Source: a virus
Strand: one strand, 5' to 3'
DNA: 64,000 bases
Virus record (IMG/VR): IMGVR_UViG_3300044846_001970
Span: 20,511-84,510 of that record
The stretch's first letter is position 1. Each line of letters opens with the position of its first letter. Position numbers and translations under genes: made by a program. Shown here in pieces: positions 2 to 49,176 of the stretch. The notes under the pieces are model-generated. The model saw only the letters and a list, made by a program, of their open reading frames with translations. It was not told the DNA's origin and searched no databases.

Positions 2-1204
2 TTGACCACCTTGCATTTGCGCAGCCATCATCTGGGCCATTCTTGGGTCCATTTGTTGTTGAGGAGGCTGTTGCATTCCACCAGGTTGCCCTTGCATCAT
101 ACCTTGTTGTTGAGCAGCCATTTGTTGTTGCTGCTGTTGAGCATTTTGTTGATATTCTGAAAGAGCTGTAAGAACAAATTCCTGAGCTTGTCTATCAGGT
201 ATATTTAAATTCATTAATACTTTTTTAATATCATCTACTGAAACTTGGTTTTGAATTAGACTAATAATAATCTCAGTCATTGGTGTACCATTTTCCATTG
301 CAGATCTTACCTTATCAGTAATTTCAGATAACACTTGTTCTAATCCTTTTTTAGCTTGTGGTAAAAATCCACCACGTCTCATTCCAGGTTGTTGCATACC
401 AGGTTGTGGCATTTCTTGTGCTGTTTCTTCTGGCATAGCTACTGGAGAACCATCAGGCATTGTTGGTTGAGCACCTTGTGGTTGAGGTGCTTGTCCTTGA
501 GGAGCACCTTCCATTCCTTGTTGTGGAGCAGATTCTTCTTTTTGAGCATCTGGAAGAATGTCTGCTTCTGTTATATTATTTTCTTCCATATAGGCTTTTG
601 CAACTACAGGTATACCTTGAGGAAATCCTTTTTTACTTTCTTGTGCTAAAGCTAAAGCTCCTAATTTAGATACTGCTTTTTTAATCATTAATTGTGCAGT
701 CTGAACAGCAATCTTATCTGATGTAGAATCTTGAAGAATACCTCTATACTTATTTAGAGTTAAAAATTGTTTTGATAAATCTGCAGGAGTATAACCACCT
801 TTTTTAATAGGCTTGTTAAACATTTTAAGAATACCAGGATCTTTAATCATCATAGACTTAGTATCACTAAAAATAAAACTATCATCTGGAAGATTTAATG
901 GTACTCCATTATTTGAATGTCTTGGTCCTTTTATTTCATAAAATAAAGGATAACCAGAAGGATCAAATGTTAATACAGTCTCACCACCTTCAGCTTCTAG
1001 ATTAGCTTCTTCTCTAGGAACTTTAGTAATAGTTTTTGTTTGAACTGCATCTTTACTTGAAAGCTTTAGGTCAGCTCCACCAAATGAAGAAATATCATTA
1101 GCTAATGAACCATCAACTTGATATCCTGTTTTAGCTTTAGGAGGACTAGTAACCCTTACCTTATAAATATCAGGTTCTTGAGAAATTTTAACTCTATATT
1201 GCAT
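2..1204 (-). CDS. Virion cargo/ejection-type protein (partial, runs off window edge)
   Basis: Not in ORF track. Manual translation from ATG at 1204 gives MQYRVKISQ...ANLEAEGGETV...GPRHSNNGVPL...FIFSD, a motif seen in crAss-like cargo proteins, followed by Q/G/M/P-rich low complexity; reads in frame at both ends, down to position 2. Confidence 0.75.
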   Translation of the reverse strand, partial: MQYRVKISQEPDIYKVRVTSPPKAKTGYQVDGSLANDISSFGGADLKLSSKDAVQTKTITKVPREEANLEAEGGETVLTFDPSGYPLFYEIKGPRHSNNGVPLNLPDDSFIFSDTKSMMIKDPGILKMFNKPIKKGGYTPADLSKQFLTLNKYRGILQDSTSDKIAVQTAQLMIKKAVSKLGALALAQESKKGFPQGIPVVAKAYMEENNITEADILPDAQKEESAPQQGMEGAPQGQAPQPQGAQPTMPDGSPVAMPEETAQEMPQPGMQQPGMRRGGFLPQAKKGLEQVLSEITDKVRSAMENGTPMTEIIISLIQNQVSVDDIKKVLMNLNIPDRQAQEFVLTALSEYQQNAQQQQQQMAAQQQGMMQGQPGGMQQPPQQQMDPRMAQMMAAQMQGGQ

Positions 1205-1209
1205 ATTAG

Positions 1210-4200
1210 TTATTTTAAGTATTCTATTTTACCTCCGGCAGCTTCAATTTCTTTAATCTGTTTAAGAGTAAGTGTATATACTCTTCCTTTTTGATATTGT
1301 TTATTAGGTGTACCACCCATTTTAGTCACAACATTATTACCATCAAAACCAATATTCTGAATATTTTTACCATATTGATTGTACCAACCTTTATCTCCCA
1401 TTTGAGAACCAGCAATTTCTGCAGAACCAAATCCTGATTGTCCAGTATTAGGACTAGCTGCATCAGAAGATCTATTTTGTTCTCTAAATGCTTCATCCTG
1501 TTTAGCTTGACTCCAAGAATTAGCTCCCTTAGTAACTATATCAGTAAGACTTCCTTTACCAAATAAATCTGCACCCATTTGTTTAGGATCAAAGGTATAT
1601 GCATTTTGTGTAATAGTTCTACCAACAAAATTTGGATCATTAAATTCTGGTTGATCAACAGTAATACCATTTTTTGCTTCTTGTAGGTAACCACCATATT
1701 CTAAGAACTGTGCATAAGATGGAACAAAACCACCTTGTTGTCTTCTTATTACACCAAATTGATTTACAGGAGGTCCTGAAGGATTCTGTAAGCCATTGTT
1801 TTGTAAAAAAGGATTACCTAATCCTGGATTAGATAAACTAGTTCCTTGTGCATTACCTGCAGGTTGTTGTGGTTGACTAGTTCCTTGAGTAGAAGATGAT
1901 GGTTGATAAGTTGTATTTGTTGCTCCTACAACAGGAACTCCTGGATTTCCAACAGCTAAATTAGGATCAGCTGGTTTACCAGGAGCATTCATATTTACTT
2001 GAGGATTTACTGCAGGAGAACTTGGATTTAAAACATCAGGTTCATTAGCATTATCATCTGGACTACTTGGACCATCAGCATAATCTTCTGGAAATGCAGC
2101 TCTTCCTCTAGCTTCATCTGCAGCTGCTTTTTTTTCACCTTTAGCAATTTTTCTTTGAGTACTCTTTTTAAAAGAAGAATAATCTCCAGAATTTGTTCCA
2201 CTGGAGTTAGTTGCATTAGCACCAGGTGCACCATCAGTTCCATTAGTACCAGGAGTTGTTCCAGGAGCACCATCTGCACTTGCAGGATCTTTAGCAGGAT
2301 CTTTAGAAGGATCAGCATACCAATCAGTAACTCTTTTATTATCAAATGGATTCCATTTATTACCTCTATCTTTATAAGTTTCTTGTCTCATATGTTCTGT
2401 TCCTTCAGGAACATTCCAGTTAGGAGAAAAACCTTGTGTATAACTAAAGTCTTTTGAAAAACCAAAACCAAGTTTTTTTGGAGGACCAAACTGCATATTA
2501 CCTTGTTGTCCTTGTTGTGATTTTTGATATTGTAAAAATTGTTCTATTTGTTGTGGAGTAAATTGTTGTTGTCCAGGAGCAGTAGTATTGGTATTGGTAG
2601 TTGTAGTTGTTGTAGTAGGGGCTGGTTGTTTTGTATTAGAACTAGGAATATTGCTAAAAGCATTTGAGCTATTAGCACCAATTAAATTTTCATTTGGTAC
2701 TCCTTGTGTATTTCCTTTAGCAAATGGATTAGTTAATTCAGCACTTAATTCTGGTTTAAATTTTGAAGAACCATCTATATTAAATTTATTTTTAGCCCAT
2801 CTATCAAAACCTCCACCAGGACCAAAACTTTGAATACCTCCACCATAAGCATATTCATCTCCACCATATATAAACTTTAATAATTCAGGATTATTAGGAT
2901 CTATCATAGATTGATCAACATATCCTCCATCATCCATATATCTTCCAACTTGCATACCGTATGCTGCCATAGGATCTACATCCATATCATCTGTATAGGG
3001 AACTTGTGAAGGATCTATAGGATCTATGGTGCCATCATTACTAGGATCTTGAGGAATAAATTTATTTAAATTTTGTTGTTTTTGATTTTGGTAAGACCCA
3101 GGGATCATTGAGGCATAAGGATTAGCAAAAGGATTTGTTAATAAACTTTCTGCACTAGGAAGACTTACCTCTGGTACAACAGGTAAACCATCTGGACCAA
3201 TACATTGATCAGAAGAAGCATCATATACAGCTCCTGGAGGACAATTTAATCCTTTTTTATTAGAAGATAAATGACCTTGTGTTGCACTTGAACTTTTTGT
3301 ATTTCCAGCAACTTCATCTAAGGCTTTATTATTAACACTTGTAATAACTTTTTGTCTAACTTGTGATGGATAAGAAACTGATTTCCAACTTCCTCTATTC
3401 ATTCCAGACATCATTCCTGGCATCATTCCATATGCTCCAGGTAAAAGATTCACAAGATTTCCTAAAGCTTTTACATCCCAATCAGCTGTAGCTTTTCTTA
3501 TACCACCTAATGGTCCAAATTCATAACTAGTATTAACACCTGGTATTGAATGAGGTGTTCCAAATAAAGCTCTGTTAGCTCTTCTTATCCGGCCTCCACG
3601 GCCATATTCATTTTTCATAATAGTTGTATTTAATGCATTTTCATCCATTTTTGACATAGTGTGCTGTAATGCTTCTCCATAACCATGAAGTTCATCAATC
3701 CAATCATGAGGCTCTTGAGCTCCACCATTTGCTTTTGTATTCATATTTTGATAGGACTCTTCAGCTTGTTTTTTCATCATTGCCTCATTACCCATTTGTT
3801 TTACAGTACTTGCAAACATTTTATTTTGTTTTGTATTATTACCCATTGGGTCACCAATACTTCCTGCTGGAGGTAAATAAAATTCACTGTTTTCTACTTC
3901 TTCTCCTTCTGCAGCTTTTCTAAGTTTTTTTATATAATCATTAATATATTTACTTTTACTTTGTTTACTTCCTCCAAAAGCAAAAGATGCTGGTACAGCA
4001 TTAGCATCCATTCCTACAAAGTAAGGTTGTTTAGCTTCAGGAATAACATTATCATTCATATACTGTCCACCTTCTGCATACTCTGCATCTTCATAACCAT
4101 CATCTTCATTAGCAAGTTCACTTCCCAAATTATTACTTTCATAGTAACCATACGTTTCACTATCAGGTATTTCTTCTACAGCTTCTACTTCTTCTACTTT

Positions 4201-4497
4201 TTTATTATAAGGAGCTTCTTTATCATATGGAGCAGTTTGTGAAGATGAGTTATAGTTATCTAATTCTTGAAGTGTATCATACATTTCATATACAGTATCT
4301 TCAATTTTTTCTCTAGGTATTTTAAAATCTACTAATGCAGAAATAACTTCTTCTGGAGAAGTTCCATTACTTAATTCAGAATCAATGTATGCATCAATAG
4401 TATCTGATTGTCCACCCGCTTTCTTAACAAACTTATTAAGCTTGCTAATAAATCTTGGAGTTTCTCCAGGTTGTGCTTTACGTATTTTTACTTTCAT
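1210..4497 (-). CDS. Large low-complexity virion cargo/ejection-type protein with many xxxGG motifs
   Basis: 1095 aa, P/G/N/Q-rich, ~12 xxxGG motifs; located downstream of the tail stabilization gene, where crAss-like cargo genes lie. Confidence 0.65.
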   Translation of the reverse strand: MKVKIRKAQPGETPRFISKLNKFVKKAGGQSDTIDAYIDSELSNGTSPEEVISALVDFKIPREKIEDTVYEMYDTLQELDNYNSSSQTAPYDKEAPYNKKVEEVEAVEEIPDSETYGYYESNNLGSELANEDDGYEDAEYAEGGQYMNDNVIPEAKQPYFVGMDANAVPASFAFGGSKQSKSKYINDYIKKLRKAAEGEEVENSEFYLPPAGSIGDPMGNNTKQNKMFASTVKQMGNEAMMKKQAEESYQNMNTKANGGAQEPHDWIDELHGYGEALQHTMSKMDENALNTTIMKNEYGRGGRIRRANRALFGTPHSIPGVNTSYEFGPLGGIRKATADWDVKALGNLVNLLPGAYGMMPGMMSGMNRGSWKSVSYPSQVRQKVITSVNNKALDEVAGNTKSSSATQGHLSSNKKGLNCPPGAVYDASSDQCIGPDGLPVVPEVSLPSAESLLTNPFANPYASMIPGSYQNQKQQNLNKFIPQDPSNDGTIDPIDPSQVPYTDDMDVDPMAAYGMQVGRYMDDGGYVDQSMIDPNNPELLKFIYGGDEYAYGGGIQSFGPGGGFDRWAKNKFNIDGSSKFKPELSAELTNPFAKGNTQGVPNENLIGANSSNAFSNIPSSNTKQPAPTTTTTTTNTNTTAPGQQQFTPQQIEQFLQYQKSQQGQQGNMQFGPPKKLGFGFSKDFSYTQGFSPNWNVPEGTEHMRQETYKDRGNKWNPFDNKRVTDWYADPSKDPAKDPASADGAPGTTPGTNGTDGAPGANATNSSGTNSGDYSSFKKSTQRKIAKGEKKAAADEARGRAAFPEDYADGPSSPDDNANEPDVLNPSSPAVNPQVNMNAPGKPADPNLAVGNPGVPVVGATNTTYQPSSSTQGTSQPQQPAGNAQGTSLSNPGLGNPFLQNNGLQNPSGPPVNQFGVIRRQQGGFVPSYAQFLEYGGYLQEAKNGITVDQPEFNDPNFVGRTITQNAYTFDPKQMGADLFGKGSLTDIVTKGANSWSQAKQDEAFREQNRSSDAASPNTGQSGFGSAEIAGSQMGDKGWYNQYGKNIQNIGFDGNNVVTKMGGTPNKQYQKGRVYTLTLKQIKEIEAAGGKIEYLK

Positions 4498-4557
4498 AAT
4501 AATATATATATTAAATATACTAAATTTTAATTTAGTATTTAAACTAAATAAGTTTAC

Positions 4558-7500
4558 TTATTTAAAACCTTTTTCTTTCATATACTTTAGAATACGTTGA
4601 TATTCTTTTGCAGTAACATCAGGTTTTCTATCTGGAGAAATCATTTGATGTGATATAACATCTTTTAAAGATAAATTATATTTTGTAGCAATAGGACTAT
4701 AATATTCTATAAAAGATTTTATTTGAGCTTCTGTTAAAGGAGTATTTACTGTATTACCTTGAAACTCAACACCAATACTAAAATCATTTACATCTTTTCT
4801 TCCATTCCATTCAGACTCTCCAGCATGGAAAGTTACTTGTTCAGGTGAAGCATATACTGTTCTTTTACCATCTTCTTCAATAACAACATGAGATGAACTT
4901 TTTCCTGGTGTCATATATTGAGTTCTAACTTGACCCTCATTATTTTTAACATCTTCATAAGCAGTATGATGTAATACAATATTTTTTACTTCATTTTTTA
5001 ATTTATGACCTTTTTTATAACTTGCATCATTTTTAGTTCTAAGGTTAGGCATGTCAAGTACATACTCTTCTTCATACTCATTAACAGGAGTTTTATAATT
5101 CATTATATATAAACCATTTCCTCCAGATGAATTTTCATTGTCATATGCTTTTAATCTGTCTGCAGTAAGTTTTTTATCATCATAAGATAATCCTCTTGAA
5201 TATGTTCCATTATCTAAAGTCCAAGCTTCAAGATATTGATTAGTTCCTTTTAATTTTTTAAATTCTTTTTTTATAGTTGATAAACTTCCAGATACTAAAT
5301 ATTGTTGTTTAGTTACAGGGTTAACAAAAAGAATTCTTCCTCCTTGAATTGAACCATAATAATCATCTTTATCTTTACCTTTTGTTAAAATATTTAAAGA
5401 ACCATCTTTTATTTTACCATTCTCAAGTACTTTTACTTTAGGTTGTTTGTATCCAGGATTACCTGATTTAGAACCATCTACATATAAATCTTCAATATCT
5501 ATAATCTTATTCATATAAGTTTGACTAAACTTCCAGTCTTTGTTATTTTTAAAATCTTTAAATTGTCCAGTATGTAAATTACCATCAGCATCTAAAGCAA
5601 ATACACTTGTATTATCTGTTATATTTTTTAATTTATCAGAATTTGTGAATGGATGGAAAGTTGTAAGTTCTAAACCTTCAGATTCAATATCATTATAATC
5701 TCCTCTATTTCTATAACCTAATTTTATATTTGATATAGGTAAGACTTGTTGTTTATAATTTCTATTACTATTAGGTATAGTAAATGATTGTTGAGTACTA
5801 TTTAAATTTTTATAATACTCACTTATGCCTAATGGATTATCATTTTCTTTTAATTCAGGTACTTTAATATCATCATCATCTATAAGCCCATAAGTTTTAC
5901 TTTTACGAATTATACCTTGACTAACATATTCTATGTACTCACCTATAGATTCTTTAGTATCTTTTATAAATTCACCTGTGTCTTCAATTGTTTCTTTAAA
6001 AGGATAATTTGTTTGAAAATCAGACATCTTAGGTGTAATAGGTTTTATTTCTTTTCCATTAGCATCATAAGATTTTTTATTAAAATCTTGTTTACTAAAT
6101 TGAGCTGCCATAGAATTAGGAATAGGCTCTACTTTATTTATTGGTTCTGGTTTTAATAAAGCTTTTTGTTGGGCAATAGTAGTTAACCTATTAAATAAAT
6201 CTTTTTCAAAATTTTCATTAATATTTTCTTTTGCTTTAGTTTTACCTTGTGTAAATGCTTGATCTATATATTTTTTTATATTACTAGGAGAAACAATTTT
6301 TGGTTCTTCAAAAGTAGTTATTCCAAATTTACTTAATATATCTTTTGGTGTTTCAACCTTTACTTCTTTTTGTGCTATACCAGGTCTTTGTAAATTTTTT
6401 ATAAAAGTAGCTACATCAATTTTTGGTGCAACAATAGGATCTTTTGCTTTAGGTTTAGGAGTTAGTATTGGTTTAGCATTTTCTATTTGTTTAGGAAATA
6501 CCTTAGAAAAAGGAATTCCTTTTGGAGCTATAGTTGCTGCATACTTTTTAAGATCTTCTTTAACAACAGTTTCTATTTTCTTTTCTATTTGCTTTGGGAA
6601 TACTTTAGGTAGAGGAATTCCTTTTGGCTTACTTTGTGCAGCATACTTACTAAGGTCTTCTTTAATAGGAGTACTTAACTCTGAAAACATATTTGTTAAA
6701 CCTTCTTTAGTACCTATACGTTTAGCAACTAAGTCTTCAAGAGTAGCACCTTTACTAATCATTCTGCTTACCATATTTTTGTATGCTTCATGATTAAAAG
6801 TTTCTTTTCTATTAGGTATTTTAGCTTCTCCAAATTCTCCTTCTAATATTTTTTTTCTTAAACTCATATTAGATTCAAAACTACCATCTGTTAAACCTTG
6901 TTTTTTAGCTTCAGACCATGGTGTACCAGTATATTGTTGCCAAAGTTGAGATACTGTTCCTCCATCAGCTTCTTTAGATAATTCATTATTATGTATTTCT
7001 TCTACTACATATCCTTCAGCAATAAGTTTTTGAATTTCTGATTTAGAAATATTTGTTTCTATTGCCCCACCTTCTTTTTTAAGTTTACCAACTCTTTGTG
7101 CTAATTTAGAAAATACTATTGGAGCTCCAGTATTTATAGTTTTACTTGTTCCATCTGCTTTTCTAATTATATTAAATCCATCTCCTGATTCTACAGAATT
7201 TTCAAATGAAAATAATGATCTTGCTCCAGCTAAGAATGGATATAATGTTGGATCACTATACTTTGTAAATGGTAATATATTAGATGCACCTTTTATTAAA
7301 TTAAATGTTCCACCTCCTATATCTCCTTGAGAATAATCAACTAAAGCATTTGGTATATGTTTAGTTCCTGTATTATACACACCATAACCTCCTAATAAAT
7401 TATTAGCATTAAGTCCTGGTAAAGCTTTAATAGGTTCATACTTTAAATAAGGAGATGCTTTTTTAGATACCTTCATTATAGTTCTAGGCACCAATCCAAA

Positions 7501-10500
7501 AAAGGCATCTGCTGGACCAGCTAAAGTTTTTGCTGCTAATGCTGATCCTCTAAGTCCTGATGCTACTTCTGCTGCTGGTAATATAATATTTAAAGGATTT
7601 GCTAATGTAGCTTGATCATAACTAACATTAGATTTTAATTCTCCACTTAATATACCAGGAGATTCTTGATAATTTCCTCCAGAAGCAGTAGATAAATCTA
7701 CTACAGAATTCATAATACCCGCTCCTAAAGCATCTACACCTGATAATGTTTCAAGAGCACCTGTAGAACTATTATGTATAGCATCATATTCTTTTTTAGT
7801 AAAGTGTTTACGAAGAGCTTTTGAATCTATATAATCTTTATTATAATCACCTAATAAAGCTGGAACACCTGTTGCTTTAATTAAAAAATTACCAAGTTCT
7901 TGTGCTCCAGCAGCAGTTTTAGCCCAAAGAGATGGTTTTAATTTAGATCCATATTTTGAGTTTGCTGCCATATCATAACTTACAGCTCCTTTATCTGCTA
8001 ATTTTTCAACTAACTCAGCATGATTATTTGGATTAATTCCATTATCTTTAGCAAATTTTTCAATTACTGCACTGTTCTTGTCATATTCCCAATTTTTGTT
8101 ATAATTACTTTCTACTTTTTCTGGAAAGTTATCTTGACTAAGTCCAGCCAATCTATTTAAACCTTTATGTTTATTAAGATATTCAGCCTTTTTTTGATAT
8201 ACATAAGCATCTCTAGGATGAGCTTCTTCATAAGCAGTTGTATATGGTGAGTATTGATTAGTATTTACTTGTCGTATATCTTGTACTCTTTCTGTAAGAG
8301 CCATTGGACTTACACACTCTCCTGTTACAGGATCTCTTTGAAATCCTTGTGGACAAGGTTCTCCACCATCATCCATATGATTTAATGAAGGTACAGAAAT
8401 GTCTTCTATAACATAACCTCCTTTTCTATATTCTTCTATTTCTTCTGGAGATAAGTCAGCTATTATTCCACCATCTTCATAATCTTTTCTTCTGTGTAAA
8501 TAAGGAGTTGAAAAAGTATGTTTCTTTTTACCATTAAATAAAGGACCTAAAGGAAAATGTTTATTTAATCTTGGTGTAGTAAAAGAATGCCATTTTTTAT
8601 CCCATTCCCAATCTGATCCTTTAAGTTCTTCTGGATAGTCTTGTGTACCCATAGATTCTATTAAAGGACTTTCTTGTTTATTTATTACTGGTTCTACAGT
8701 AGGTACTATTACTTCTTCTTTAACAGGATCTATTATTTTAACAGGATCTATTACTTCTTCTTTAATGGGTTCAATTGGTATAACAGGTTCTTCTTCTTTA
8801 TTATAACCTAATAAATAATTTGATGGTTTTGCATAGACTGGATAAAAATGTCCACCACCAGGATGTCCTTTAAAACCTATTGGTTTAACTGAAGATTTAG
8901 CCATCATTTTTTTCCATTCACCAAATGAAACCATTGGTTCATTTATAAATGGAATACCATCTTGAGGTGGCATTAATTTTCCAGTACCATATGACATCCA
9001 CGGATCCCATCCAGTTCTAGGTATAGACTCAAAAGTTTTATAAAATTTATCTTTAGCTGATATAGTTCCATATTTTTTAAGTCTAGCAGCCTCATAAGTA
9101 TTATGATTGTTAACTCTAGTAATATATTGATTATATAATTTTTGTTGTTCTTTTTTTGTTATATTTGATTTTGCTAATTCTGCCTCACTATATACTATTT
9201 TTGTATTTTTAGGAATAATTTTACATTCAGTTCCTGTCCAGTATTGTCCTTCGGGACAACCACCTTCCATAGGAGAAAAAATTATTTTTTGTTCAGAAGC
9301 TCCACCTTTCTTTGCATGTATTAATCCTTGACCACCACACTTATGACAAGTAGTAATATCATCACCACCATCTGCAGCATCCCATTCCCAACCACATTTT
9401 TTACATGTTACTTTCTTGGTAAGTAAAGCACCACCTTTAGCAGCTACTTTAATTTCTTCTTCTCCTTCATTATTTTTAGAAATATTTTGAAGCATCCAAA
9501 GAATTTCCTCATCTGTAAATTGTTTTCTAAGATCTTTAATTGGTTTCATTGGTTGCCAATTATCATCACTTCTTTTTTTATTTATATAATTTTGAAATAT
9601 TTCTGGAGTAATTTGTTCTGTAAATGGATCATAAATACCTTCTTTTTTAGCAAGTTGTCTAATTTCTCCTAGTCTTGCTCTAACTTCAGTTGGTTGAGAA
9701 ATATAGTCATGACCTATAGTCTTCCATTCTTTTTGGTTAGAGTCAGAAGATATTTTATGATTTGTTTGAATTATATTTTTTAAATTTTCAAATTGTTTTT
9801 GAAAATCTTTGTCATCTTCAGTAAAACCTTGAGAATATAATATTTGTTTTATTTCTTCATCAGTTTGCATACTATAAGCTTCAGGCCATTTTTCTACTCT
9901 AGATTTATAGTCTTGATTATCTTTCCAATTAGAACCTCTATTTCTAGTAATATACAATTGATCAGATTCAGGCATTACTCTTTCACTAGATTCTTCCTTA
10001 TCATTTGGAAATCTTGGATCTTTAGAATTTATAAAATCCCAATTATATATTCCTTTTGGTCTATCAGATGTATGAAAATATTCATGTGTGTACATAGAAG
10101 GTCCATACTCAAAACCTTCAGGATACACTTTTACCTCTCCTGTTAAACTATTTGAAGTTGCTGCGGGGTTAAAACCATGAGAACTAATAGTTGACGTAGC
10201 CATAATATTTATCGGAGGTATATCAGCAATATTTTCTTTTCTAAGTTTTGTAACATAATCTGCACCTAGTTGATTACCATCAAAACTATTAAGAACCATT
10301 TGATTATACATAGGTGAGTCATGCCAACCCTTAACAAAGTCTAATCCTTCATCAGCATATTTAGGTTCATTTACTAAAGCTTTTTTATAAGCTTCATTTT
10401 TTTCTATATCCTCAAAATATTTTTTTTCTGTAATTTTTTCTTTTTTTCTAATAGCTTTTGTTTCTTCATCAGGTTCAGAAATTAATTTTTTATCAATAGT

Positions 10501-10878
10501 ACTTAATGGAATTAAACTCATGTTTACTGGATCATAACCATACTTTCCACTATATAAATAATGTTTTATTTGATCATTATATTTAAGACTTATTTTATCA
10601 GGATCAGCAGAATGCATTGCCCAATTTGCAACTCCATCTATAAGTTTTTGATCAGTAGCATATGTTATAAGTCTTGTACATTTTTCACCATCCCAATATT
10701 CCCCATCTTTACATTTATTTTTTTCTCCACCTTTATCAAATCTATATTTAGCTTTAGGATTATATACTCCAGGTGCTTTCTTTTTTCTTTTTCTAAAAAG
10801 TGGACTTTTTTTAAATAGTCTATTTGTAGCAAACAAATTGCTATTACCTTTTTCACCACCTGCTTTATAATTTTCCAT
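4558..10878 (-). CDS. Multidomain virion protein: zincin-like HExxH peptidase, Zn-ribbon, Cys mini-modules, C-terminal N-acetylmuramoyl-L-alanine amidase
   Basis: THEYFH plus YISQPTEVRAR; CKKC..CHKC; C-terminal IVLHHT...SSHVVI...FHAGES...SIGVEF...SHQMISPDRKPD amidase_2 signature. Confidence 0.75.
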   Translation of the reverse strand: MENYKAGGEKGNSNLFATNRLFKKSPLFRKRKKKAPGVYNPKAKYRFDKGGEKNKCKDGEYWDGEKCTRLITYATDQKLIDGVANWAMHSADPDKISLKYNDQIKHYLYSGKYGYDPVNMSLIPLSTIDKKLISEPDEETKAIRKKEKITEKKYFEDIEKNEAYKKALVNEPKYADEGLDFVKGWHDSPMYNQMVLNSFDGNQLGADYVTKLRKENIADIPPINIMATSTISSHGFNPAATSNSLTGEVKVYPEGFEYGPSMYTHEYFHTSDRPKGIYNWDFINSKDPRFPNDKEESSERVMPESDQLYITRNRGSNWKDNQDYKSRVEKWPEAYSMQTDEEIKQILYSQGFTEDDKDFQKQFENLKNIIQTNHKISSDSNQKEWKTIGHDYISQPTEVRARLGEIRQLAKKEGIYDPFTEQITPEIFQNYINKKRSDDNWQPMKPIKDLRKQFTDEEILWMLQNISKNNEGEEEIKVAAKGGALLTKKVTCKKCGWEWDAADGGDDITTCHKCGGQGLIHAKKGGASEQKIIFSPMEGGCPEGQYWTGTECKIIPKNTKIVYSEAELAKSNITKKEQQKLYNQYITRVNNHNTYEAARLKKYGTISAKDKFYKTFESIPRTGWDPWMSYGTGKLMPPQDGIPFINEPMVSFGEWKKMMAKSSVKPIGFKGHPGGGHFYPVYAKPSNYLLGYNKEEEPVIPIEPIKEEVIDPVKIIDPVKEEVIVPTVEPVINKQESPLIESMGTQDYPEELKGSDWEWDKKWHSFTTPRLNKHFPLGPLFNGKKKHTFSTPYLHRRKDYEDGGIIADLSPEEIEEYRKGGYVIEDISVPSLNHMDDGGEPCPQGFQRDPVTGECVSPMALTERVQDIRQVNTNQYSPYTTAYEEAHPRDAYVYQKKAEYLNKHKGLNRLAGLSQDNFPEKVESNYNKNWEYDKNSAVIEKFAKDNGINPNNHAELVEKLADKGAVSYDMAANSKYGSKLKPSLWAKTAAGAQELGNFLIKATGVPALLGDYNKDYIDSKALRKHFTKKEYDAIHNSSTGALETLSGVDALGAGIMNSVVDLSTASGGNYQESPGILSGELKSNVSYDQATLANPLNIILPAAEVASGLRGSALAAKTLAGPADAFFGLVPRTIMKVSKKASPYLKYEPIKALPGLNANNLLGGYGVYNTGTKHIPNALVDYSQGDIGGGTFNLIKGASNILPFTKYSDPTLYPFLAGARSLFSFENSVESGDGFNIIRKADGTSKTINTGAPIVFSKLAQRVGKLKKEGGAIETNISKSEIQKLIAEGYVVEEIHNNELSKEADGGTVSQLWQQYTGTPWSEAKKQGLTDGSFESNMSLRKKILEGEFGEAKIPNRKETFNHEAYKNMVSRMISKGATLEDLVAKRIGTKEGLTNMFSELSTPIKEDLSKYAAQSKPKGIPLPKVFPKQIEKKIETVVKEDLKKYAATIAPKGIPFSKVFPKQIENAKPILTPKPKAKDPIVAPKIDVATFIKNLQRPGIAQKEVKVETPKDILSKFGITTFEEPKIVSPSNIKKYIDQAFTQGKTKAKENINENFEKDLFNRLTTIAQQKALLKPEPINKVEPIPNSMAAQFSKQDFNKKSYDANGKEIKPITPKMSDFQTNYPFKETIEDTGEFIKDTKESIGEYIEYVSQGIIRKSKTYGLIDDDDIKVPELKENDNPLGISEYYKNLNSTQQSFTIPNSNRNYKQQVLPISNIKLGYRNRGDYNDIESEGLELTTFHPFTNSDKLKNITDNTSVFALDADGNLHTGQFKDFKNNKDWKFSQTYMNKIIDIEDLYVDGSKSGNPGYKQPKVKVLENGKIKDGSLNILTKGKDKDDYYGSIQGGRILFVNPVTKQQYLVSGSLSTIKKEFKKLKGTNQYLEAWTLDNGTYSRGLSYDDKKLTADRLKAYDNENSSGGNGLYIMNYKTPVNEYEEEYVLDMPNLRTKNDASYKKGHKLKNEVKNIVLHHTAYEDVKNNEGQVRTQYMTPGKSSSHVVIEEDGKRTVYASPEQVTFHAGESEWNGRKDVNDFSIGVEFQGNTVNTPLTEAQIKSFIEYYSPIATKYNLSLKDVISHQMISPDRKPDVTAKEYQRILKYMKEKGFK

Positions 10879-28118: not shown

Positions 28119-28120
28119 AG

Positions 28121-28459: not shown

Positions 28460-28461
28460 AG

Positions 28462-28818: not shown

Positions 28819-28820
28819 TA

Positions 28821-29054: not shown

Positions 29055-29066
29055 AATTTCTATATT

Positions 29067-29300
29067 TTAATTACCTTTAGTAAAATTGTTTAATACATTA
29101 ACTTGTTCTTGAGCTAATTTTTTAACATCAGCCATCATCTTAGTGTTCTTTCTAATCTCATCAGCTCTTTTTAAAGTGCTTAATGCAGATTCAACTTCCC
29201 ACTTTTTCATGTCAGCTTTATTACCACCCATAATAGAAAGTCCTATTGAAGATTTCTTAGCAGGTGTTTTCTTAACAGTAGTTGTTTTTCTAATTGCCAT
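29067..29300 (-). CDS. Small basic hypothetical protein
   Basis: 77 aa in operon. Confidence 0.65.
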   Translation of the reverse strand: MAIRKTTTVKKTPAKKSSIGLSIMGGNKADMKKWEVESALSTLKRADEIRKNTKMMADVKKLAQEQVNVLNNFTKGN

Positions 29301-29302
29301 GA

Positions 29303-32780: not shown

Positions 32781-34046
32781 TTAAAATCTCTTGAACAAAT
32801 TATTTTGTCTAGAGAGTGTCTTTTGAGGTTGTCTACTTGGAGAAGCTGTTCTTCTTTCTTCTTCTTGCTCATAATTACTTGAACCTAGTTTCCTAGACTC
32901 CTCAGTTTTTAATTTCCTTACTGTATCTTCTACAGTTTTTTTACTTCCTTGTTCTCTTACTTTACCTTTATATCCATCTGGATCTGCAAGTAACCAAAGT
33001 GCTTCTGCAATTAAGTCATGTCTTGGTTCTACAAACTGATACTTCTCTAAAAGGTGGCCTAACATATTTGTAGGTTTCCCAGATATTGAAGGATAGTTTG
33101 GTTGAACTAAACCAGAAAAAAGTAAACCTTGTGTTTTCTTATCTAGTCTAAGACCTCCTAACTCACCAGCTTGTAATGTATTAAAGACATTATCTTGATA
33201 AGCTTTTGCAGCATTTGATTGTTGTTGTCTTCTAGATTCTTGATCTGCTAGTTGTCTTTGAACAATCTCATTTTGCATTCTATCTAACTTTGGTTTAAAC
33301 TGAACAGCTTTTTGTTCTAATCTATCTAAGTCTAACCAATCTTGTATTTCTTCTTCAATTTCTTCTGGAGTTCCAAAACCAGTAGCATATAGATACTGTC
33401 TTGCAATCTCTGCTTGATCACCTTCTTCAGAAGGATCAAGTTGTCTCATTTCTTCTACTTGAGCTAATGTTCTAAATAGACCTTTAAGATCTTGTCCTCC
33501 ATCAGCTACATACTTAGCAGCATATTGAAGTTCTTCTGGTAAAGATTGATAAAATTCTTTAGGAACATCATTCCTTACTTTATCTTCTCTCTCTTGAAAG
33601 TTAGCTTCAAATAATTCTCTAAAGTCTTTAGTGGTATATTCATCTAATGATTTATCATCATCAAAAGCCATTAAAGATCCTTCTTCAATCATTTTAGTTG
33701 CTAACTCATAAAGACCAGACTTATCTACTTTTGGTCTTCCTTTATTACCAGTCTCTTCTTCTTGACTGATTAAACTATCTAATTCAGCAATAGTTTCATC
33801 AACTTCTTCTTTCTTTTCTCTTGCCTCCTCTCTTTCTTTAGGAGTGGTTTTACTCATGTCAAGGAACGCAGTGTCTACATTTTCTTTTGAAAACATAGTC
33901 TTTGGTTTATCATCTTCTTCCTTAGAGGGAAGCATTACACTTTCTGCTCCAGGGTTTCCAAATATCTCATCAATATTTACATCTACTTGACCTACCGTTG
34001 TAGTGTCTAAAAACTGAGTTTCCCCAGTATTTGTTACATTATCCAT
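32781..34046 (-). CDS. Acidic coiled-coil scaffold-like protein
   Basis: D/E-rich, between portal and MCP. Confidence 0.6.
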   Translation of the reverse strand: MDNVTNTGETQFLDTTTVGQVDVNIDEIFGNPGAESVMLPSKEEDDKPKTMFSKENVDTAFLDMSKTTPKEREEAREKKEEVDETIAELDSLISQEEETGNKGRPKVDKSGLYELATKMIEEGSLMAFDDDKSLDEYTTKDFRELFEANFQEREDKVRNDVPKEFYQSLPEELQYAAKYVADGGQDLKGLFRTLAQVEEMRQLDPSEEGDQAEIARQYLYATGFGTPEEIEEEIQDWLDLDRLEQKAVQFKPKLDRMQNEIVQRQLADQESRRQQQSNAAKAYQDNVFNTLQAGELGGLRLDKKTQGLLFSGLVQPNYPSISGKPTNMLGHLLEKYQFVEPRHDLIAEALWLLADPDGYKGKVREQGSKKTVEDTVRKLKTEESRKLGSSNYEQEEERRTASPSRQPQKTLSRQNNLFKRF

Positions 34047-34141: not shown

Positions 34142-36889
34142 TTATTTCTTTTTCACTTCTCCTCCTTTATCAAATTTATTTTTATTTACTCTTGCTATTT
34201 CAAGTTGCTTATTTGCTATATCTCTTTGAACATTAAGCTTCTCTCTTTCTAAATCTATTTTGTTTCTATCAATAATCATTCTATTAGTATCCTTATCTCT
34301 TTGTAAAGATGTTTGAGCTTCATACTGTTCAGTCTGTCTAATATCTTTCATAGCATCTTGATAGTCAGATATTTCATTTTTATTAACATCTTGCATTGCT
34401 CCAAAACCTGCTGATCTAATTTCAGCAACAAGCACTTCATTTTGTCTATCTTTTTCTTTCTGAGTTTCCTCATAAGTTCTTCTAAGTTGTGCTTCCTCTG
34501 CATCTGCTTTAATTTTTTGTTCTTGCATTTGTTGTTGAGACTGCATCTCTTGTTCTTTCTGCTGTTTTAGTTTATTCTCAGAATCTTTAAGTACTGTATT
34601 AAGTTCAGCAATGGAATCAGATTGTACAATTTTACCAAGATCATATACTGATGCTCCTGTAGTATTGTTATTCATAGCCATTTGTTTTAATTGTTCTAAG
34701 ATGGCTCTATGGTTTGCAGTTGTACTACAGAAGATATTAAGATCTCTCATTAATAAATCAGTACCATTTATTTCAAAATTAACCTTTTCATCAGCTGATG
34801 TAACATAAGTTAATCTTGCTGAAGGATTTGTTGAATTATAATACTGAGCTAAGTCAGTTCTCATTTGATGTACTCTTGGCATTAAGTAATCACAGTGTTG
34901 TATAAAGAATACTTCTGTTTGTGCATAAGAAGCACTTTGTGCTTGTTCTACTCCAGTAGCAGTCATCTGAGATAACTGTTGTCCCATTCTTTGTGCATTA
35001 ACACCAATCACTTCATATGCTTGTTGTTTAAAATGGTTTGCTAAGTTTACTCTTGACATTAATCTTTCTGTCTGAGATAGATCTAGTTTTTGGAAATGAT
35101 TAAAGTTAAGAGCATTCTCTGTATTAGTAATAGATGTATCTAAAGGAAGCATTCCAAAATTCTTCATTGCTACATATGCTTTAGATAAATTACCTTTTCC
35201 CCAGTCTTCTCCTAAAGAGTGTCTAGGAAGAGTGTTCTGGTCTAACATGATAATAGTACCTAACTCATCTACTAATATGTCAGCAATCTGGTTATTTACT
35301 ATGTTATATCCAATCTGGAATGGCTTCATTAAATCAATGAGTGCAGTTGACTTAGTATTTCTATCAGAGAATACTGCACCTTCTACAGGAAGTTTACAAC
35401 CATATAAAGTACTATCACCTTTAAATTGAAACTTAAGTGGTCCAATTTTTTTCTTTTCTACACCAATATACATAGGTGTAAATCCTCCTGGATTATTCAT
35501 ACCCCAGAAAGAAGGAATATTTGGTCCTATCTTTACACCACCCCATACTTCATTAATCCAGATCCAATCTATGTGTTCACCAAATATTAAATTATCTTTA
35601 GTTTTATTTTTATTTAATCTAGTATCATAAATAGGTTTAATAGTTGTCTTGTAATTTTCATCTACAATTTCCATTTGAACTTCACCTTCATCAGTAACAA
35701 GTATTAAATGGCCAACTTTTCTTTGAGACTTCCAATATACTGTTGTGCAACGTAATAAATAAGCAGTACCTTGATTATAGTAATCTTCACTTTCAGCTAA
35801 TATCTCAGTAATAATATCTCCTCCGCTAACTACAGCTCCTCCCATTGCAGTTGTATATTGTCTCATTGCAAGAGATGGCATGTTAGTATTCCAATCATGA
35901 GTCTTAGTACCATCATAGAAAGTACCATCATTTTGATAACCACCAATATTATAACCAGCAGATCTAATAGGATAAATAGCTTCTAATGCAACCATTTGTT
36001 CTTCATCCATTAAATATCCATATTTATCTAGAGCATCAGAAGGAGTTAACATATCTGTTTTACCTACCCAGTTAGCTTGAGATATGTATCTTGCATCTGG
36101 AGATTTATGATAAAAAGTTACAGCAGGATTCCATAGCTCTACTTCATAGTCATCTTCCATCATTCTCATATGCCAGAATTCTCTGTCAGTAATAAGCATA
36201 TCTCTGAATGCTCTTTCCTCAAGTTCATTCATACCAAATCTTTCAACATCTACTTTATGTTGGTGAGTAGCCCACTCTTCTACCATAGATCTATAATCTT
36301 TTCTAAAGAACATTTCTATTTCTGGAAGAGATTTTAATTTATCATCTGCTGTTTCTTGTTGAAATTCTTCTGATGCAGGATCCATTCCTTGATCCATAAG
36401 AGCAGATGCTATTTTTAATTTAGCATCAGATAAAAGAACTTCTTCTACCATGGCTCTTTTTTGCTCAAGCATTTCATTATAAGATGTATCATCTACTGCC
36501 CGGTATGTAAGTTTAGTAGATCTCTTTGCAAATTCAGCTACTAAAACATTAATAACATTTGGAATAATAGGATAAAACTTTAACTCTAATGCAGATTCAT
36601 CTTCTTTAGTAAGTACTTCTACAATATCTCTGTACTCATTATTATCTTCAACTATATAATCAGACTTATCTATAATACCTTTTGCAAGCTTATAATTCTT
36701 CATTAGCCTACGGGCATTTCTGCGGAGTTGTTTAAGACCTTGCCATTCAACCCAATCTAAATTCCATGCAGCCCATCTATCATCTTTTTCTTCTTTGGAT
36801 AAAAATTGAAGTGGTTGGGTAATACTACCCATTCTATTAGTTTCAACTTTGGCTCCTGCTTTAGCCTGAAGTGCATTAATTATTTTCAT
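34142..36889 (-). CDS. Portal protein
   Basis: 915 aa after terminase; FYPIIPNVINVL.AE, WINEVW.G.KIG, LIDLMKPFQ motifs; Q-rich coiled-coil tail. Confidence 0.85.
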   Translation of the reverse strand: MKIINALQAKAGAKVETNRMGSITQPLQFLSKEEKDDRWAAWNLDWVEWQGLKQLRRNARRLMKNYKLAKGIIDKSDYIVEDNNEYRDIVEVLTKEDESALELKFYPIIPNVINVLVAEFAKRSTKLTYRAVDDTSYNEMLEQKRAMVEEVLLSDAKLKIASALMDQGMDPASEEFQQETADDKLKSLPEIEMFFRKDYRSMVEEWATHQHKVDVERFGMNELEERAFRDMLITDREFWHMRMMEDDYEVELWNPAVTFYHKSPDARYISQANWVGKTDMLTPSDALDKYGYLMDEEQMVALEAIYPIRSAGYNIGGYQNDGTFYDGTKTHDWNTNMPSLAMRQYTTAMGGAVVSGGDIITEILAESEDYYNQGTAYLLRCTTVYWKSQRKVGHLILVTDEGEVQMEIVDENYKTTIKPIYDTRLNKNKTKDNLIFGEHIDWIWINEVWGGVKIGPNIPSFWGMNNPGGFTPMYIGVEKKKIGPLKFQFKGDSTLYGCKLPVEGAVFSDRNTKSTALIDLMKPFQIGYNIVNNQIADILVDELGTIIMLDQNTLPRHSLGEDWGKGNLSKAYVAMKNFGMLPLDTSITNTENALNFNHFQKLDLSQTERLMSRVNLANHFKQQAYEVIGVNAQRMGQQLSQMTATGVEQAQSASYAQTEVFFIQHCDYLMPRVHQMRTDLAQYYNSTNPSARLTYVTSADEKVNFEINGTDLLMRDLNIFCSTTANHRAILEQLKQMAMNNNTTGASVYDLGKIVQSDSIAELNTVLKDSENKLKQQKEQEMQSQQQMQEQKIKADAEEAQLRRTYEETQKEKDRQNEVLVAEIRSAGFGAMQDVNKNEISDYQDAMKDIRQTEQYEAQTSLQRDKDTNRMIIDRNKIDLEREKLNVQRDIANKQLEIARVNKNKFDKGGEVKKK

Positions 36890-41828: not shown

Positions 41829-42188
41829 TTACCCTTTAGTTCTTGGTTTTACCATTTTTTTTACATTGCTTATTACTGTTTTTGCATTAGTAACTTTAGC
41901 TGCAATTTTAGGATGGTTCTTTAAAAATTTACCACCACCTATTGGTCCACCATTTTTTTCTTGTTTTAACATTTTTTTAAGACCAAGTCCTGCAGCTGTA
42001 GCAGCACCAATACCTAATAAGGCACCTAATGCGCGACCACCACCTCCTCCACCTCCAGAAGATGTTCTGTATCTAGTTACTTTTCCACAACCACTTTTCT
42101 TTTTTCTTTTTCTTTTTTTACCAGAAGCATCCATATATTCTTCCATACAAGAATCATCCATTGATCCTCCTGTTTCATACTTTTTCAT
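41829..42188 (-). CDS. Small basic protein with GG motifs and hydrophobic segment
   Basis: YETGG, EKNGG, poly-G, ALGALLGIGAATAAGLGL. Confidence 0.6.
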   Translation of the reverse strand: MKKYETGGSMDDSCMEEYMDASGKKRKRKKKSGCGKVTRYRTSSGGGGGGGRALGALLGIGAATAAGLGLKKMLKQEKNGGPIGGGKFLKNHPKIAAKVTNAKTVISNVKKMVKPRTKG

Positions 42189-42351: not shown

Positions 42352-42999
42352 TTATAATTTTTTTAACATTTCTATTACTCTTGGACAAGGGTACATATCT
42401 GACTTATCCTTTCTTACTGAGTTGTGTGTAAAGATACCTTTATTTCCTTTTAATGCATCTATATCTATATCCCATATAGATTCATTATAATCTTTAGGTA
42501 TATCATAAGTTTCACAAAGATATACTACTAATTGTCTTAGTGATTCTATCTGAGCATCTGTATAAGTAAACCAATGTTTGTGATTTTTATAAGGCTTTTC
42601 TAAGGTAGTTACATTAGAAGCATTAACTTCTCCTCCTACATAATTATAGTACTTACCATTTTTAAAAGATATTGGTCCCCAGTTACATACTTCAATACCT
42701 ATACTTATAGGATCTAAAGATAAGTAAGGAACTTTACTAGCTTTAAAAATACTTTCTTTTAAACCTAAATGATATGCCCAGTCTCTAGAACTAAAACATT
42801 GTACAATTGTACCGTTTGCTCCAATTATGAAGGCAGTGGCAACTCTCTCAGGTTTAGTATCAAAATACTTAGCTACTGATAGTGCATCTGGTCCACCTGC
42901 AGTATGGTGTAGATATATCTGTTTCTTTTCATGTTTAACTTCCATGAACTGACCAGGTCTTAACCTATGTTGAACTATTTTACTTATATCTAATTTCAT
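42352..42999 (-). CDS. Endolysin, N-acetylmuramoyl-L-alanine amidase
   Basis: IYLHHTAG...WAYHLG...SIGIEVCN...FTHNSVR.DKSD. Confidence 0.9.
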   Translation of the reverse strand: MKLDISKIVQHRLRPGQFMEVKHEKKQIYLHHTAGGPDALSVAKYFDTKPERVATAFIIGANGTIVQCFSSRDWAYHLGLKESIFKASKVPYLSLDPISIGIEVCNWGPISFKNGKYYNYVGGEVNASNVTTLEKPYKNHKHWFTYTDAQIESLRQLVVYLCETYDIPKDYNESIWDIDIDALKGNKGIFTHNSVRKDKSDMYPCPRVIEMLKKL

Positions 43000-45892: not shown

Positions 45893-45893
45893 C

Positions 45894-46847: not shown

Positions 46848-46888
46848 CTCATTAACTTAAAAGGAAACTAACCAAAGAAACTTTTAAG

Positions 46889-47735: not shown

Positions 47736-47739
47736 ACTT

Positions 47740-48069: not shown

Positions 48070-48101
48070 AATATATTTGTTTGGTTTATGCAAATATATA
48101 A

Positions 48102-48242: not shown

Positions 48243-48254
48243 GATTATAATATA

Positions 48255-48527
48255 TTAACAGTTCCATTTTCTTAATGCAAGAGTCTTTCTTGTAGGTTCT
48301 CCGTTTGGTTTTTTAGCAGGGCCTGGCATACCAGACATTCTAGCGCAAAAACTCTTTCTTCTTTTAGCATCTTTACTTCCAGCTTTTAATTTAGATGGTT
48401 TAGTTGTTACTGCTGTCTGAAGTTTACTACCAGGATTAGCTGCTCTATAAGAAGCTACTCCTTTAGCATTCAATCCTCCTTTAGGATCTTTACCTTCTTT
48501 TCTGGTCCAAGCTGCTGTCTTTGCCAT
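48255..48527 (-). CDS. Small basic phage protein (DUF6321-like)
   Basis: AWTRKEGK..KGGLNAKG...RRKSFCARM...LRKWNC. Confidence 0.7.
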   Translation of the reverse strand: MAKTAAWTRKEGKDPKGGLNAKGVASYRAANPGSKLQTAVTTKPSKLKAGSKDAKRRKSFCARMSGMPGPAKKPNGEPTRKTLALRKWNC

Positions 48528-48529
48528 GA

Positions 48530-48868
48530 TTATACTTTTTTAACTTTATTACCCATACCTACTCTAGATTTTTCTGCTTTTTTAGCAGTTAACTTAGAGG
48601 GTGTTATTTCACTTTTAGTTTTAGGTGTAGCTTTAGATACTCTTTTGGTAGGTCTACAGTATTCATTCTTTCCTCCTGCACCACAAGCTTTTCCTGATTT
48701 AGTATCTTGCCATTTTTCTGCTTGCCATCTTTTAAGATCTGATCCAGCTTTAGTTTTTCTAACAGTGCCAGAACCTTTCCTACATTTAGCAATAGCTTGA
48801 GAAGCCCTTGCTGAAGGGAACACAGCGTACTGTGCTTTTACTTTTTTATAACAAGCATCTTTTGGCAT
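48530..48868 (-). CDS. Small basic phage protein (DUF5872-like)
   Basis: DACYKKVK..Y.VFPSA.AS...LKRW..EKW.D...YCRP.KRVS..TPKT. Confidence 0.65.
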   Translation of the reverse strand: MPKDACYKKVKAQYAVFPSARASQAIAKCRKGSGTVRKTKAGSDLKRWQAEKWQDTKSGKACGAGGKNEYCRPTKRVSKATPKTKSEITPSKLTAKKAEKSRVGMGNKVKKV

Positions 48869-49176
48869 TACTTTTTCTTTTTAATTACTCCACCTTTTTT
48901 ATAAGTTTCATATTGTACATCTGATCTAACTTTTTTACCACCTTTAAATAACTTTTTAGTTTCTTTTTGTGATGTCCAATCTCCCTCTTTATTTCTTTTT
49001 ACAACTTGTTTTTCTATATATTTACTTCTAGGTTCATCTTTAGTTTTATATGTAATATCTTTTTCTTTACTAATACCTTTTTTTGTAAGTCTATTAAAAG
49101 AAGAAATTTGTATGTTTTTTCCACCATCTGTTTTTATAACTTCTCTAGTTCTTTTAAGAATTTTAGGTATGTTCAT
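48868..49176 (-). CDS. Small basic protein with YKKGG motif
   Basis: 102 aa, Lys-rich. Confidence 0.6.
   Translation of the reverse strand: MNIPKILKRTREVIKTDGGKNIQISSFNRLTKKGISKEKDITYKTKDEPRSKYIEKQVVKRNKEGDWTSQKETKKLFKGGKKVRSDVQYETYKKGGVIKKKK

Follow-up and report, generated by a model that had tools for sequence, protein, structure and literature searches.

The window analysed here is a 64,000-nucleotide stretch of viral DNA (IMG/VR record IMGVR_UViG_3300044846_001970, positions 20,511 to 84,510 of that record), the last 64 kb of an 84.5-kb contig from a crAss-like phage that is rated ~71% complete. Its minus-strand genes encode a short motif in which Met, Tyr or Phe is followed by two residues and a Gly-Gly pair ([MYF]xxGG). 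The excess of this motif is confined to two protein classes, three large proteins encoded after the muzzle gene and a set of small lysine-rich proteins, and is not a general property of the late arm. In both classes the motif is conserved among relatives, lies in sequence predicted to be disordered, and is placed at protein termini and module joints. We ranked three readings of these observations, and tentatively put first a docking or address tag for proteins inside the head, ahead of a maturation cleavage site and, third, a hinge or "sticker" that has no specific reader.

Motif enrichment in the window

Expected counts were obtained from 600 composition-preserving shuffles per protein, performed over the whole protein or within windows of 30 amino acids (aa). 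Counts are given as observed, whole-protein shuffle and 30-aa window shuffle:

GG: 133; 91.5; 100.0
[MYFAK]xxGG: 47; 23.8±4.6; 26.4±4.9
[MYF]xxGG: 29; 9.4±3.0; 10.7±3.1
[MYF]x[KRDE]GG: 14; 2.0; 2.2

An earlier note, made from the letters alone, had counted ~35-40 copies of a basic tag of this type. All 22 of the 22 pentapeptides that it named are present in the proteins stated, and the loose form [MYFAK]xxGG occurs 47 times on the minus strand up to position 49176, including 34 copies with Lys or Arg close upstream. Enrichment over a composition-matched shuffle was borne out for both forms, and the 29 copies of the stricter one (9.4-10.7 expected) were reached in none of the shuffles; Ala or Lys at position -3 contributes little beyond [MYF]. 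Replacing GG by other pairs gave no enrichment for AA (7 vs 7.6), NN (10 vs 7.9) or KK (13 vs 14.1), and a weak one for SS (13 vs 7.1). The sharper patterns were picked after inspection of the data, and the tests in other genomes described below therefore weigh more. Gly codon pairs within the motif are used as at other GG pairs, so that the signal is one of protein and not of DNA, which rules out a DNA-level origin such as Lys-Gly-Gly encoded by a Shine-Dalgarno-like AAGGAGG.

Observed and expected numbers of [MYF]xxGG differed between protein classes:

Small basic proteins (10 proteins): 9 observed, 1.2 expected
Large proteins after the muzzle gene, 2-10878 (3 proteins): 13 observed, 2.8 expected
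Other minus-arm proteins, portal included (35 proteins): 7 observed, 5.5 expected
Early arm (34 proteins): 3 observed, 0.9 expected

The tag had been proposed as common to cargo proteins, small basic proteins and the portal. The first two classes are indeed enriched, whereas the portal falls among proteins at expectation; its C-terminal copy (FDKGG, 34160-34174, minus strand) is present in the window but not conserved, since only 17 of 72 related portals have GG in their last 15 residues, and NKN[KR][YF]D and a basic tail are conserved instead. The early genes, described as essentially free of the motif, are not depleted of it (3 vs 0.9 expected), and they contain 3 GG pairs against 7.4 expected. 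Copies in the muzzle protein resemble ordinary conserved turns of a folded protein.

Large proteins in cargo position

The minus arm encodes TerL, the portal, a Crass_capsid major capsid protein and tail ring proteins 1 and 2, and the plus arm comprises small early genes together with those for a helicase and a ClpS homolog. A minus-arm protein of 1803 aa matches a PHROG virion structural family (phrog_37948), and its ortholog in a relative, G001, matches the Pfam crassvirus muzzle family (crAss_MUZ). The nearest cultured phage shares only 32% portal identity, and portals that are 73-100% identical occur in many IMG/VR relatives. Portal comparison revealed no cultured member of the clade, nor did tblastn of two mini-proteins against cultured phages, which gave no match (the BLAST low-complexity filter may hide matches). 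The window's own genome (G000) was compared with three relatives fetched whole, G001 and G002 (both complete) and G005 (93%). In all four, the muzzle gene is followed by three proteins, in G000 of 2106, 1095 and 926 aa, and then by giant proteins related to gp47 and gp50 of PhicrAss001, which here lie outside the window. The three proteins in this cargo position are:

4558-10878, minus strand: first cargo-position protein (2106 aa), encoded immediately downstream of the muzzle gene and carrying Amidase_2 at its C-terminus; copies of the motif: YKAGG 10855-10869, FDKGG 10726-10740, YEDGG 8467-8481, YRKGG 8416-8430 and MDDGG 8362-8376, all on the minus strand
1210-4497, minus strand: 1095-aa second cargo-position protein, mostly low-complexity, C-terminus AAGGKIEYLK
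2-1204, minus strand: residues 1-401 of the third cargo-position protein (926 aa), the remainder lying outside the window; MRRGG at 368-382

Enrichment of [MYF]xxGG in this position was replicated in all four genomes (G000, 17 vs 3.2 expected; G001, 12 vs 2.9; G002, 13 vs 2.1; G005, 11 vs 2.6); the observed count was reached in 0 of 500 shuffles, and the remaining proteome was at or near expectation. The motif is likewise not enriched in the giant RNA polymerase (RNAP)-associated proteins. Within the window, the 2106-aa protein carries 5 copies (0.99 expected) and the 1095-aa protein 7 (1.29 expected).

The motif is conserved in the 926-aa family, whose first residues form the open reading frame (ORF) at the window edge for which the earlier note had correctly listed MRRGG. 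The family has 1747 homologs, and in an alignment of 37 sequences (36 of 120 listed homologs plus the query) the GG pairs at residues 278/279, 454/455, 905/906 and 912/913 are invariant and the pair at 442/443 nearly so. In the otherwise poorly conserved region 260-926, the motif glycines account for 10 of the 43 columns conserved at >=90%; Met, Phe or Tyr is conserved at -3 and/or -1, and Tyr or Phe at +1. All five conserved pairs fall in segments of an AlphaFold2 model with a predicted local distance difference test score (pLDDT) <50 that flank confident helices. A Foldseek search of this low-confidence model against the PDB returned 0 of 280 rows at E <= 0.001.

Of 14 GG sites in the 1095-aa protein, G000 and G001 share 10 at an overall identity of 47%, with changes in the flanking residues. 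The C-terminus of the second cargo protein reads [AN]GGx[IVL]EY[LIV] in four of four genomes, and the third has a C-terminal GG tail in three of four. A conserved module of the first cargo protein, ~30 aa long, starts with the motif: YxDGG is followed by a helix and by GYVxEE. Both this module and an N-terminal motif pair are kept in G001, G002 and G005. The carriers had been called otherwise unrelated, which does not fully hold: the 926-aa and 1095-aa proteins (2-4497, minus strand) have in common a paralogous island, PMAAYGMQxG...YAYGG, surrounded by low-complexity sequence rich in Gln, Asn and Thr, and the mini-proteins described below share shuffled modules.

Family searches identified little else in these proteins. 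Besides Amidase_2, no Pfam match was obtained for the 926-, 1095- and 2106-aa proteins, the 1095-aa protein has no Pfam or PHROG family and recovered the phage itself alone in a related-locus search, and the Pfam C1 cargo family PF25725 (crAss_CARG1) was detected in 0 of 4 genomes at E <= 1. The phage encodes two Amidase_2 peptidoglycan hydrolases, the C-terminal domain of the 2106-aa protein (residues 1962-2086, E 5.5e-18) and a 215-aa endolysin beside the holin (42352-42999, minus strand); the latter serves exit, and the former, on a protein of the ejected type, probably serves entry.

A variable cassette of lysine-rich mini-proteins

The second class consists of small basic proteins in two clusters and a possible further member:

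27339-30007, minus strand: cassette of six small lysine-rich proteins (259, 112, 118, 77, 77 and 234 aa) between a gp33-like gene and a ring-protein-like gene
28821-29054, minus strand: 77-aa CxxCGG mini-protein, the best-conserved cassette family; MANGG at 28998-29012 and MKLGG at 28920-28934
48255-49176, minus strand: second basic mini-protein cluster, with Pfam matches to DUF6321 (48255-48527) and DUF5872 (48530-48868), and a 102-aa protein (48868-49176)
41829-42188, minus strand: 119-aa basic protein beside the lysis genes, with MKKYETGG at the N-terminus, seven consecutive Gly and a hydrophobic segment; its membership of the motif class is uncertain

The six cassette proteins have net charges of +10 to +37 and carry 7 [MYF]xxGG against 0.8 expected, and three of the four genomes show enrichment in the cassette. 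Across 28 loci, the syntenic interval between orthologs of the 338-aa (gp33-like) and 232-aa proteins varies in gene number, length and sequence while the motif is kept; its proteins contain 11-39% Lys and up to 10 motif copies each, and most of these proteins cannot be aligned to those of the window. Among 97 non-redundant mini-proteins of relatives (the window's own copy excluded), [MYF]xxGG occurs 120 times against 13.4±3.6 expected, and K[MYF]xxGG 70 times against 3.0. A logo of 250 sites reads K (-4), M/Y (-3; enriched 8.8-fold and 3.9-fold), K/Q (-2), K (-1), GG, S/T/A (+1), T/V (+2) and K (+3).

Conservation in homologs, which the earlier note had left to be seen, thus holds for the mini-proteins as for the 926-aa family. 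The 77-aa family counts 56 homologs, all of them unnamed and lacking Pfam domains, and across 29 aligned sequences (28 homologs plus the query) M15, G18, G19, K42, G44 and G45 are invariant; insertions in this family bring additional motif units. Both copies lie within residues 1-44, which have pLDDT <50 in the AlphaFold2 model and are predicted to be disordered. For the 234-aa protein, the ESM Atlas returned only unnamed viral clusters, all below 0.9. KYETGG, as found in the 119-aa protein, also occurs in a 104-aa G001 protein. No structural mini-proteins were found annotated in Cellulophaga phage phi17:2.

In the window, separate genes encode DUF5872 and DUF6321 next to each other and well away from the capsid gene, whereas relatives have the two in the capsid-proximal cassette. 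In PHROGs 727 and 3477 they match neighbouring parts of much longer proteins, which suggests that they are portable C-terminal modules. Nothing relevant to either domain was found in the literature. A second recurring element, C-P-x-G-(7 to 12 residues)-C, is found in mini-proteins and in the 2106-aa protein (29303-30007 and 4558-10878, both minus strand; relatives' loci L030, L032, L040 and L052), for example as CPQGQVSDGKGGC, CPEGQYWTGTEC and CPQGFQRDPVTGEC, and may form a metal- or disulfide-stabilised knuckle.

Placement at tails and module joints

The motif is not placed at random within its carriers. In 33 of 88 mini-proteins, the last GG lies <=10 aa from the C-terminus (18.6±3.7 expected) within a stereotyped tail, [KM]K[KM]GGx[VIT]K(x)KKK, while N-terminal GG placement shows no enrichment (24 vs 22.9). 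Two module families are found both alone and fused, and in both the break falls exactly after GG (arrow): DUF6321 begins MAKTAAWTR when alone and reads KMKTGG↓STAAWTR when fused, and the second family begins MANAKV when alone and reads YKTGG↓MVNPNAKV when fused. The window represents the split state, with the 102-aa protein ending in YKKGGVIKKKK and DUF6321 as a separate gene. More generally, among 378 internal homology ends, the share with a GG no more than 5 aa away is 54.8%, and 25.4±2.1% is expected at random; the figure is possibly inflated because a conserved motif can itself anchor alignment ends.

Copies are irregularly spaced, from 7 to >100 aa apart, and this spacing, together with the predicted disorder, rules out a structured repeat. 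Low pLDDT and irregular spacing together indicate that the motif is a short linear motif in sequence predicted to be disordered, and not a turn of a fold. A different linker marks a gene fusion elsewhere in the genome: in a 1221-aa protein outside the window (L104 15204-18869, minus strand), a Gly/Lys linker containing TGGGKGGGGKGGGGKKG at residues 454-470 is the fusion point of what are two separate genes in G001 (496 and 759 aa).

Comparison with known systems

No published description was found of the motif, the cassette or maturation cleavage in crassviruses, and we compared the motif with better-known peptide signals. Encapsulin cargo-loading peptides are short, lie in disordered tails that are often C-terminal, and dock cargo inside an HK97-fold shell. 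The motif resembles them as a short peptide in terminal tails (C-terminal enrichment; predicted disorder, with pLDDT <50 at the motif), and differs in its consensus, its multiple copies and its presence at internal joints; docking by the motif is hypothetical. Double-glycine leaders cut by C39 peptidases are single and N-terminal, with hydrophobic residues at -4, -7 and -12 and a Gly-Gly that ends the recognised peptide. The Gly-Gly pair is shared; no C39 domain was detected in the four genomes (PF03412, E <= 1).

In phage T4, the capsid targeting sequence (CTS) occupies the N-terminus and is cleaved at L/I-x-E. As described for IPI, IPII and IPIII, it takes the internal proteins into the head together with the DNA, and it is the only element that this diverse set has in common (PMC3012670). 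The likeness to the present case is that of a short peptide common to diverse, fast-evolving small basic proteins encoded among head genes (PMC3012670). Unlike the CTS, the tag described here is multi-copy, internal or C-terminal, of another sequence and also present on very large ejected proteins, and no T4-type prohead protease family was found in the window's genome or in 124 of the 129 ORFs of G001.

The closest positional counterpart is the C1 cargo protein gp45 of PhicrAss001, which mass spectrometry detected in virions and of which part has been modelled (PMC10172136). Like the cargo-position proteins here, gp45 is encoded after the muzzle; it has similar aromatic-x-x-GG sites at the edges of its ordered segments and ends in a lysine tail (YTGGTKKAKGGKVRTKKKK). 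Its GG residues are at 209/210, 263-265, 332/333, 427/428, 562/563, 821/822 and 828/829. FSAYGG (205-210) stands four residues ahead of the barrel-bound helix 214-245, AFGG (425-428) forms the first residues of the modelled portal-bound domain 425-552, and FAYGG (559-563) follows that domain (helix and domain as reported in PMC10172136). No sequence homology to gp45 was detectable (PF25725 in 0 of 4 genomes; nothing by BLAST), PhicrAss001 has no basic mini-protein cassette, and the motif does not reach significant enrichment when gp45 is taken by itself (3 vs 1.2).

A further parallel is provided by the adenovirus protease adenain, whose sites in pVII, pre-mu and others also consist of a hydrophobic residue and then Gly-Gly on histone-like basic proteins packed with the viral genome, and are cut inside the particle (PMC4246237). 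Across our 250 sites, Met and Tyr are enriched at -3 from the first Gly, which corresponds to P5 and not to P4 as in adenain, with Lys, Gln or Ala at -2; no clan CE protease was detected in the four genomes, and cutting is here only a candidate process.

Docking, cleavage or hinge

We infer a common reader, and docking rather than cutting, as the best though tentative account. The core (Met/Tyr/Phe, two residues, Gly-Gly) would then mark C-terminal tails and module joints in two forms, K-[MYF]-[KQA]-[KT]-G-G-[STA]-[TV]-K in the mini-proteins and aromatic/Met-x-x-G-G-aromatic in the large proteins. The carriers, most likely residents of the head interior, would be the three large "cargo" proteins, ejected and encoded downstream of the muzzle gene, and, as a second set, the fast-shuffling cassette of disordered, lysine-rich mini-proteins beside the capsid gene. 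As an exposed flexible peptide, the tag would be read by one common partner during procapsid assembly, any tag-bearing module would be taken in whatever its fusion state, and the lysine-rich flanks would then rest on the DNA. Trimming after docking, as in T4, would be compatible with such a tag.

One conceivable partner lies between the portal and capsid genes:

32781-34046, minus strand: acidic 421-aa protein, net charge -27

By position and composition it is a scaffolding-protein candidate. It has >6400 homologs, every one unnamed; PHROG and Pfam scans and a PDB sequence search gave no family or PDB match, and PDB searches with the 421-, 338- and 232-aa neighbours gave no usable match. Co-folding of the capsid protein, residues 100-421 of this candidate and the 77-aa mini-protein gave a score of 0.00 (mark 0.32), a result with no bearing on binding.

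Several points weigh against a docking tag. The receptor for the motif is hypothetical, and the mini-proteins are presumed from gene position to reside in virions. Since PF25725 is unmatched, the "cargo" label of the large proteins rests on gene position and composition. In G001, the corresponding interval shows no significant enrichment (1 vs 0.4), and the cultured relatives checked (PhicrAss001, Lbo-JY46 and phi17:2) do not have the basic cassette. The figure for homology ends carries the bias mentioned above. Finally, the joints, the invariant Gly-Gly and the small residues that follow it in the basic flavour would fit a cleavage site equally, and a zincin signature is conserved on a packaged protein.

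A maturation cleavage site is accordingly the next candidate, possible but somewhat less probable. As the head matures, a protease of the phage or of the host would process large and mini-proteins like polyproteins, cutting after Gly-Gly, which would free modules and short lysine peptides and make gene fusion and fission neutral. Consistent with this, stand-alone modules start exactly where the fused forms would be cut (MAKTAAWTR, MANAKV), the information lies mostly N-terminal of GG with S/T/A after it in the basic flavour, and short N-terminal pre-pieces occur (MENYKAGG↓ and MKKYETGG↓). The phi14:2 RNAP preprint places the protein set to which the giants belong in virions, describes it as fused in some phages into a polyprotein "likely cleaved", and names in it a zincin-like protease domain whose role is given as not known (10.1101/2020.03.07.982082). 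By analogy, adenain cuts basic core proteins at (M/I/L)XGG↓X (PMC4246237). A candidate enzyme, judged by sequence, is the YHE[AS]WH region (residues ~830-1060) of a giant packaged protein: the zincin-like signature VDxYHE[AS]WH[AG]F[ST]Q lies at residue 914 of a 2701-aa giant outside the window (L104 ~4925-5617, minus strand) and is conserved in all four genomes and at residue 2157 of PhicrAss001 gp47.

Other observations speak against cutting. Neither Pfam nor PDB sequence searches gave a match for the zincin region, and the C39 (PF03412), Ulp1-like C48 (PF02902) and adenain C5 (PF00770) families were found in 0 of 4 genomes at E <= 1, alongside the lack of a prohead protease family noted above. 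The hydrophobic residue sits at P5 instead of P4 (250 sites; PMC4246237), a bulky Tyr or Phe follows GG in the cargo flavour, and the giants, for which the literature predicts cleavage, show no excess of the motif. Moreover, AFGG of gp45 is intact in virions because it lies within the modelled residues 425-552 (PMC10172136). A ClpS homolog, an adaptor of the ClpAP N-end-rule pathway (PF02617, E 5.4e-15), is encoded in the early arm (59641-59895, plus strand), with homologs in G002 and G005 and not in G001; it is pure speculation that a cut at GG↓Tyr/Phe, if any, would give a ClpS-type degron at the new N-terminus.

The two HExxH proteins that the earlier note had named as candidate proteases fare less well. 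What survives of its docking or cleavage label is a portable element, under strong selection, on probably head-internal proteins. Patchy occurrence in relatives rules out both proteins as conserved partners of the motif: the positional orthologs of the 2106-aa protein in G002 and G005 lack its HExxH (HEYFH, residue 265), and the other protein has a homolog in only one of the three complete or near-complete relatives:

49181-49627, minus strand: 148-aa HExxH protein, HETMH at residue 96; no Pfam match; homolog in G001, absent from G002 and G005

The first cargo protein of G001 shows no more than a sub-threshold DUF6782 match (24.7 bits vs a cut-off of 27). Separately, the G001 replication arm (L087 5589-6767, plus strand) encodes a DUF2201-type putative metallopeptidase with a VWA-like domain, and the matching region is missing from the window's incomplete contig.

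A third reading, which we consider rather unlikely, dispenses with a specific reader. Gly-Gly would be a hinge and the Lys/Met/Tyr flanks DNA-contacting or self-associating "stickers", comparable to histone tails or AT-hooks, and the shuffling of modules at the motif would reflect no more than in-frame recombination promoted by repeated coding sequence. The high positive charge (+10 to +37) and predicted disorder of the mini-proteins, the many irregularly spaced copies and the insertion of whole motif units would all agree with this, as would the 1221-aa protein, where a Gly/Lys linker and not the motif marks the fusion point, and the T4 internal proteins, which contact DNA phosphate via lysines only (PMC3012670). 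A plain hinge, however, would not need the invariant Met/Tyr/Phe at -3, and the ordinary codon use at the Gly pair makes for a weak DNA repeat. In the cargo proteins, acidic flanks (YMDDGG, YEDGG, EYEEGG) make DNA binding unlikely. The AT-hook core is R-G-R-P, and the motif core does not resemble it.

Lastly, an artefact of chance or of Gly- and Lys-rich composition would account for part of the earlier list ([AK] at -3 adds little), for the non-class proteins at expectation, portal included, and for the turn-like muzzle copies, yet as a general explanation it is refuted, with hardly any probability left to it, by an excess of 6 to 8 standard deviations over whole-protein and local shuffles and of 29 in the relatives' mini-proteins, by motif columns invariant in deep alignments such as that of the 926-aa family, and by replication in four genomes.

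Other genes of the minus arm

Two further genes are recorded as side observations. A 150-aa DUF5856 protein within the structural operon (26170-26622, minus strand) is conserved in G001 and G002 and also matches a PHROG annotated as a starvation-inducible regulator. A 210-aa protein (49715-50347, minus strand) strongly matches PHROG 3704 ("ferredoxin", moron/auxiliary metabolic gene; E 4e-66) and has a homolog in none of G001, G002 and G005.

Implications for crassvirus heads

The structure paper on PhicrAss001 reports ~5.5 MDa of packed cargo (PMC10172136). A term search of its main text gave no occurrence of protease, cleavage or scaffold, and the selection of proteins for loading is therefore not addressed there. 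A portable, conserved peptide confined to proteins in cargo position offers a concrete and mutable handle on this selection, and does so in a very abundant environmental lineage, with >6400 homologs of the scaffold candidate and 1747 of the 926-aa protein. If the docking reading is true, foreign proteins could be brought into crassvirus heads by means of the tag, an application already made of the T4 CTS (PMC3012670). The hypervariable basic cassette is a possible reservoir of injected proteins for counter-defence or DNA condensation. As a bolder and doubtful extension, Phi-x-x-Gly-Gly may be an order-wide cargo code of crassviruses, which could be tested in a cultured gut crassvirus because gp45 of PhicrAss001 carries the same sites. 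In such a code, a procapsid reader (the portal, the scaffold or the packaged zincin) would decide what is loaded into the head, and from which this lake and marine lineage would have built a hypervariable arsenal of injected, DNA-bound mini-proteins, the counterpart of the internal-protein locus of T4.

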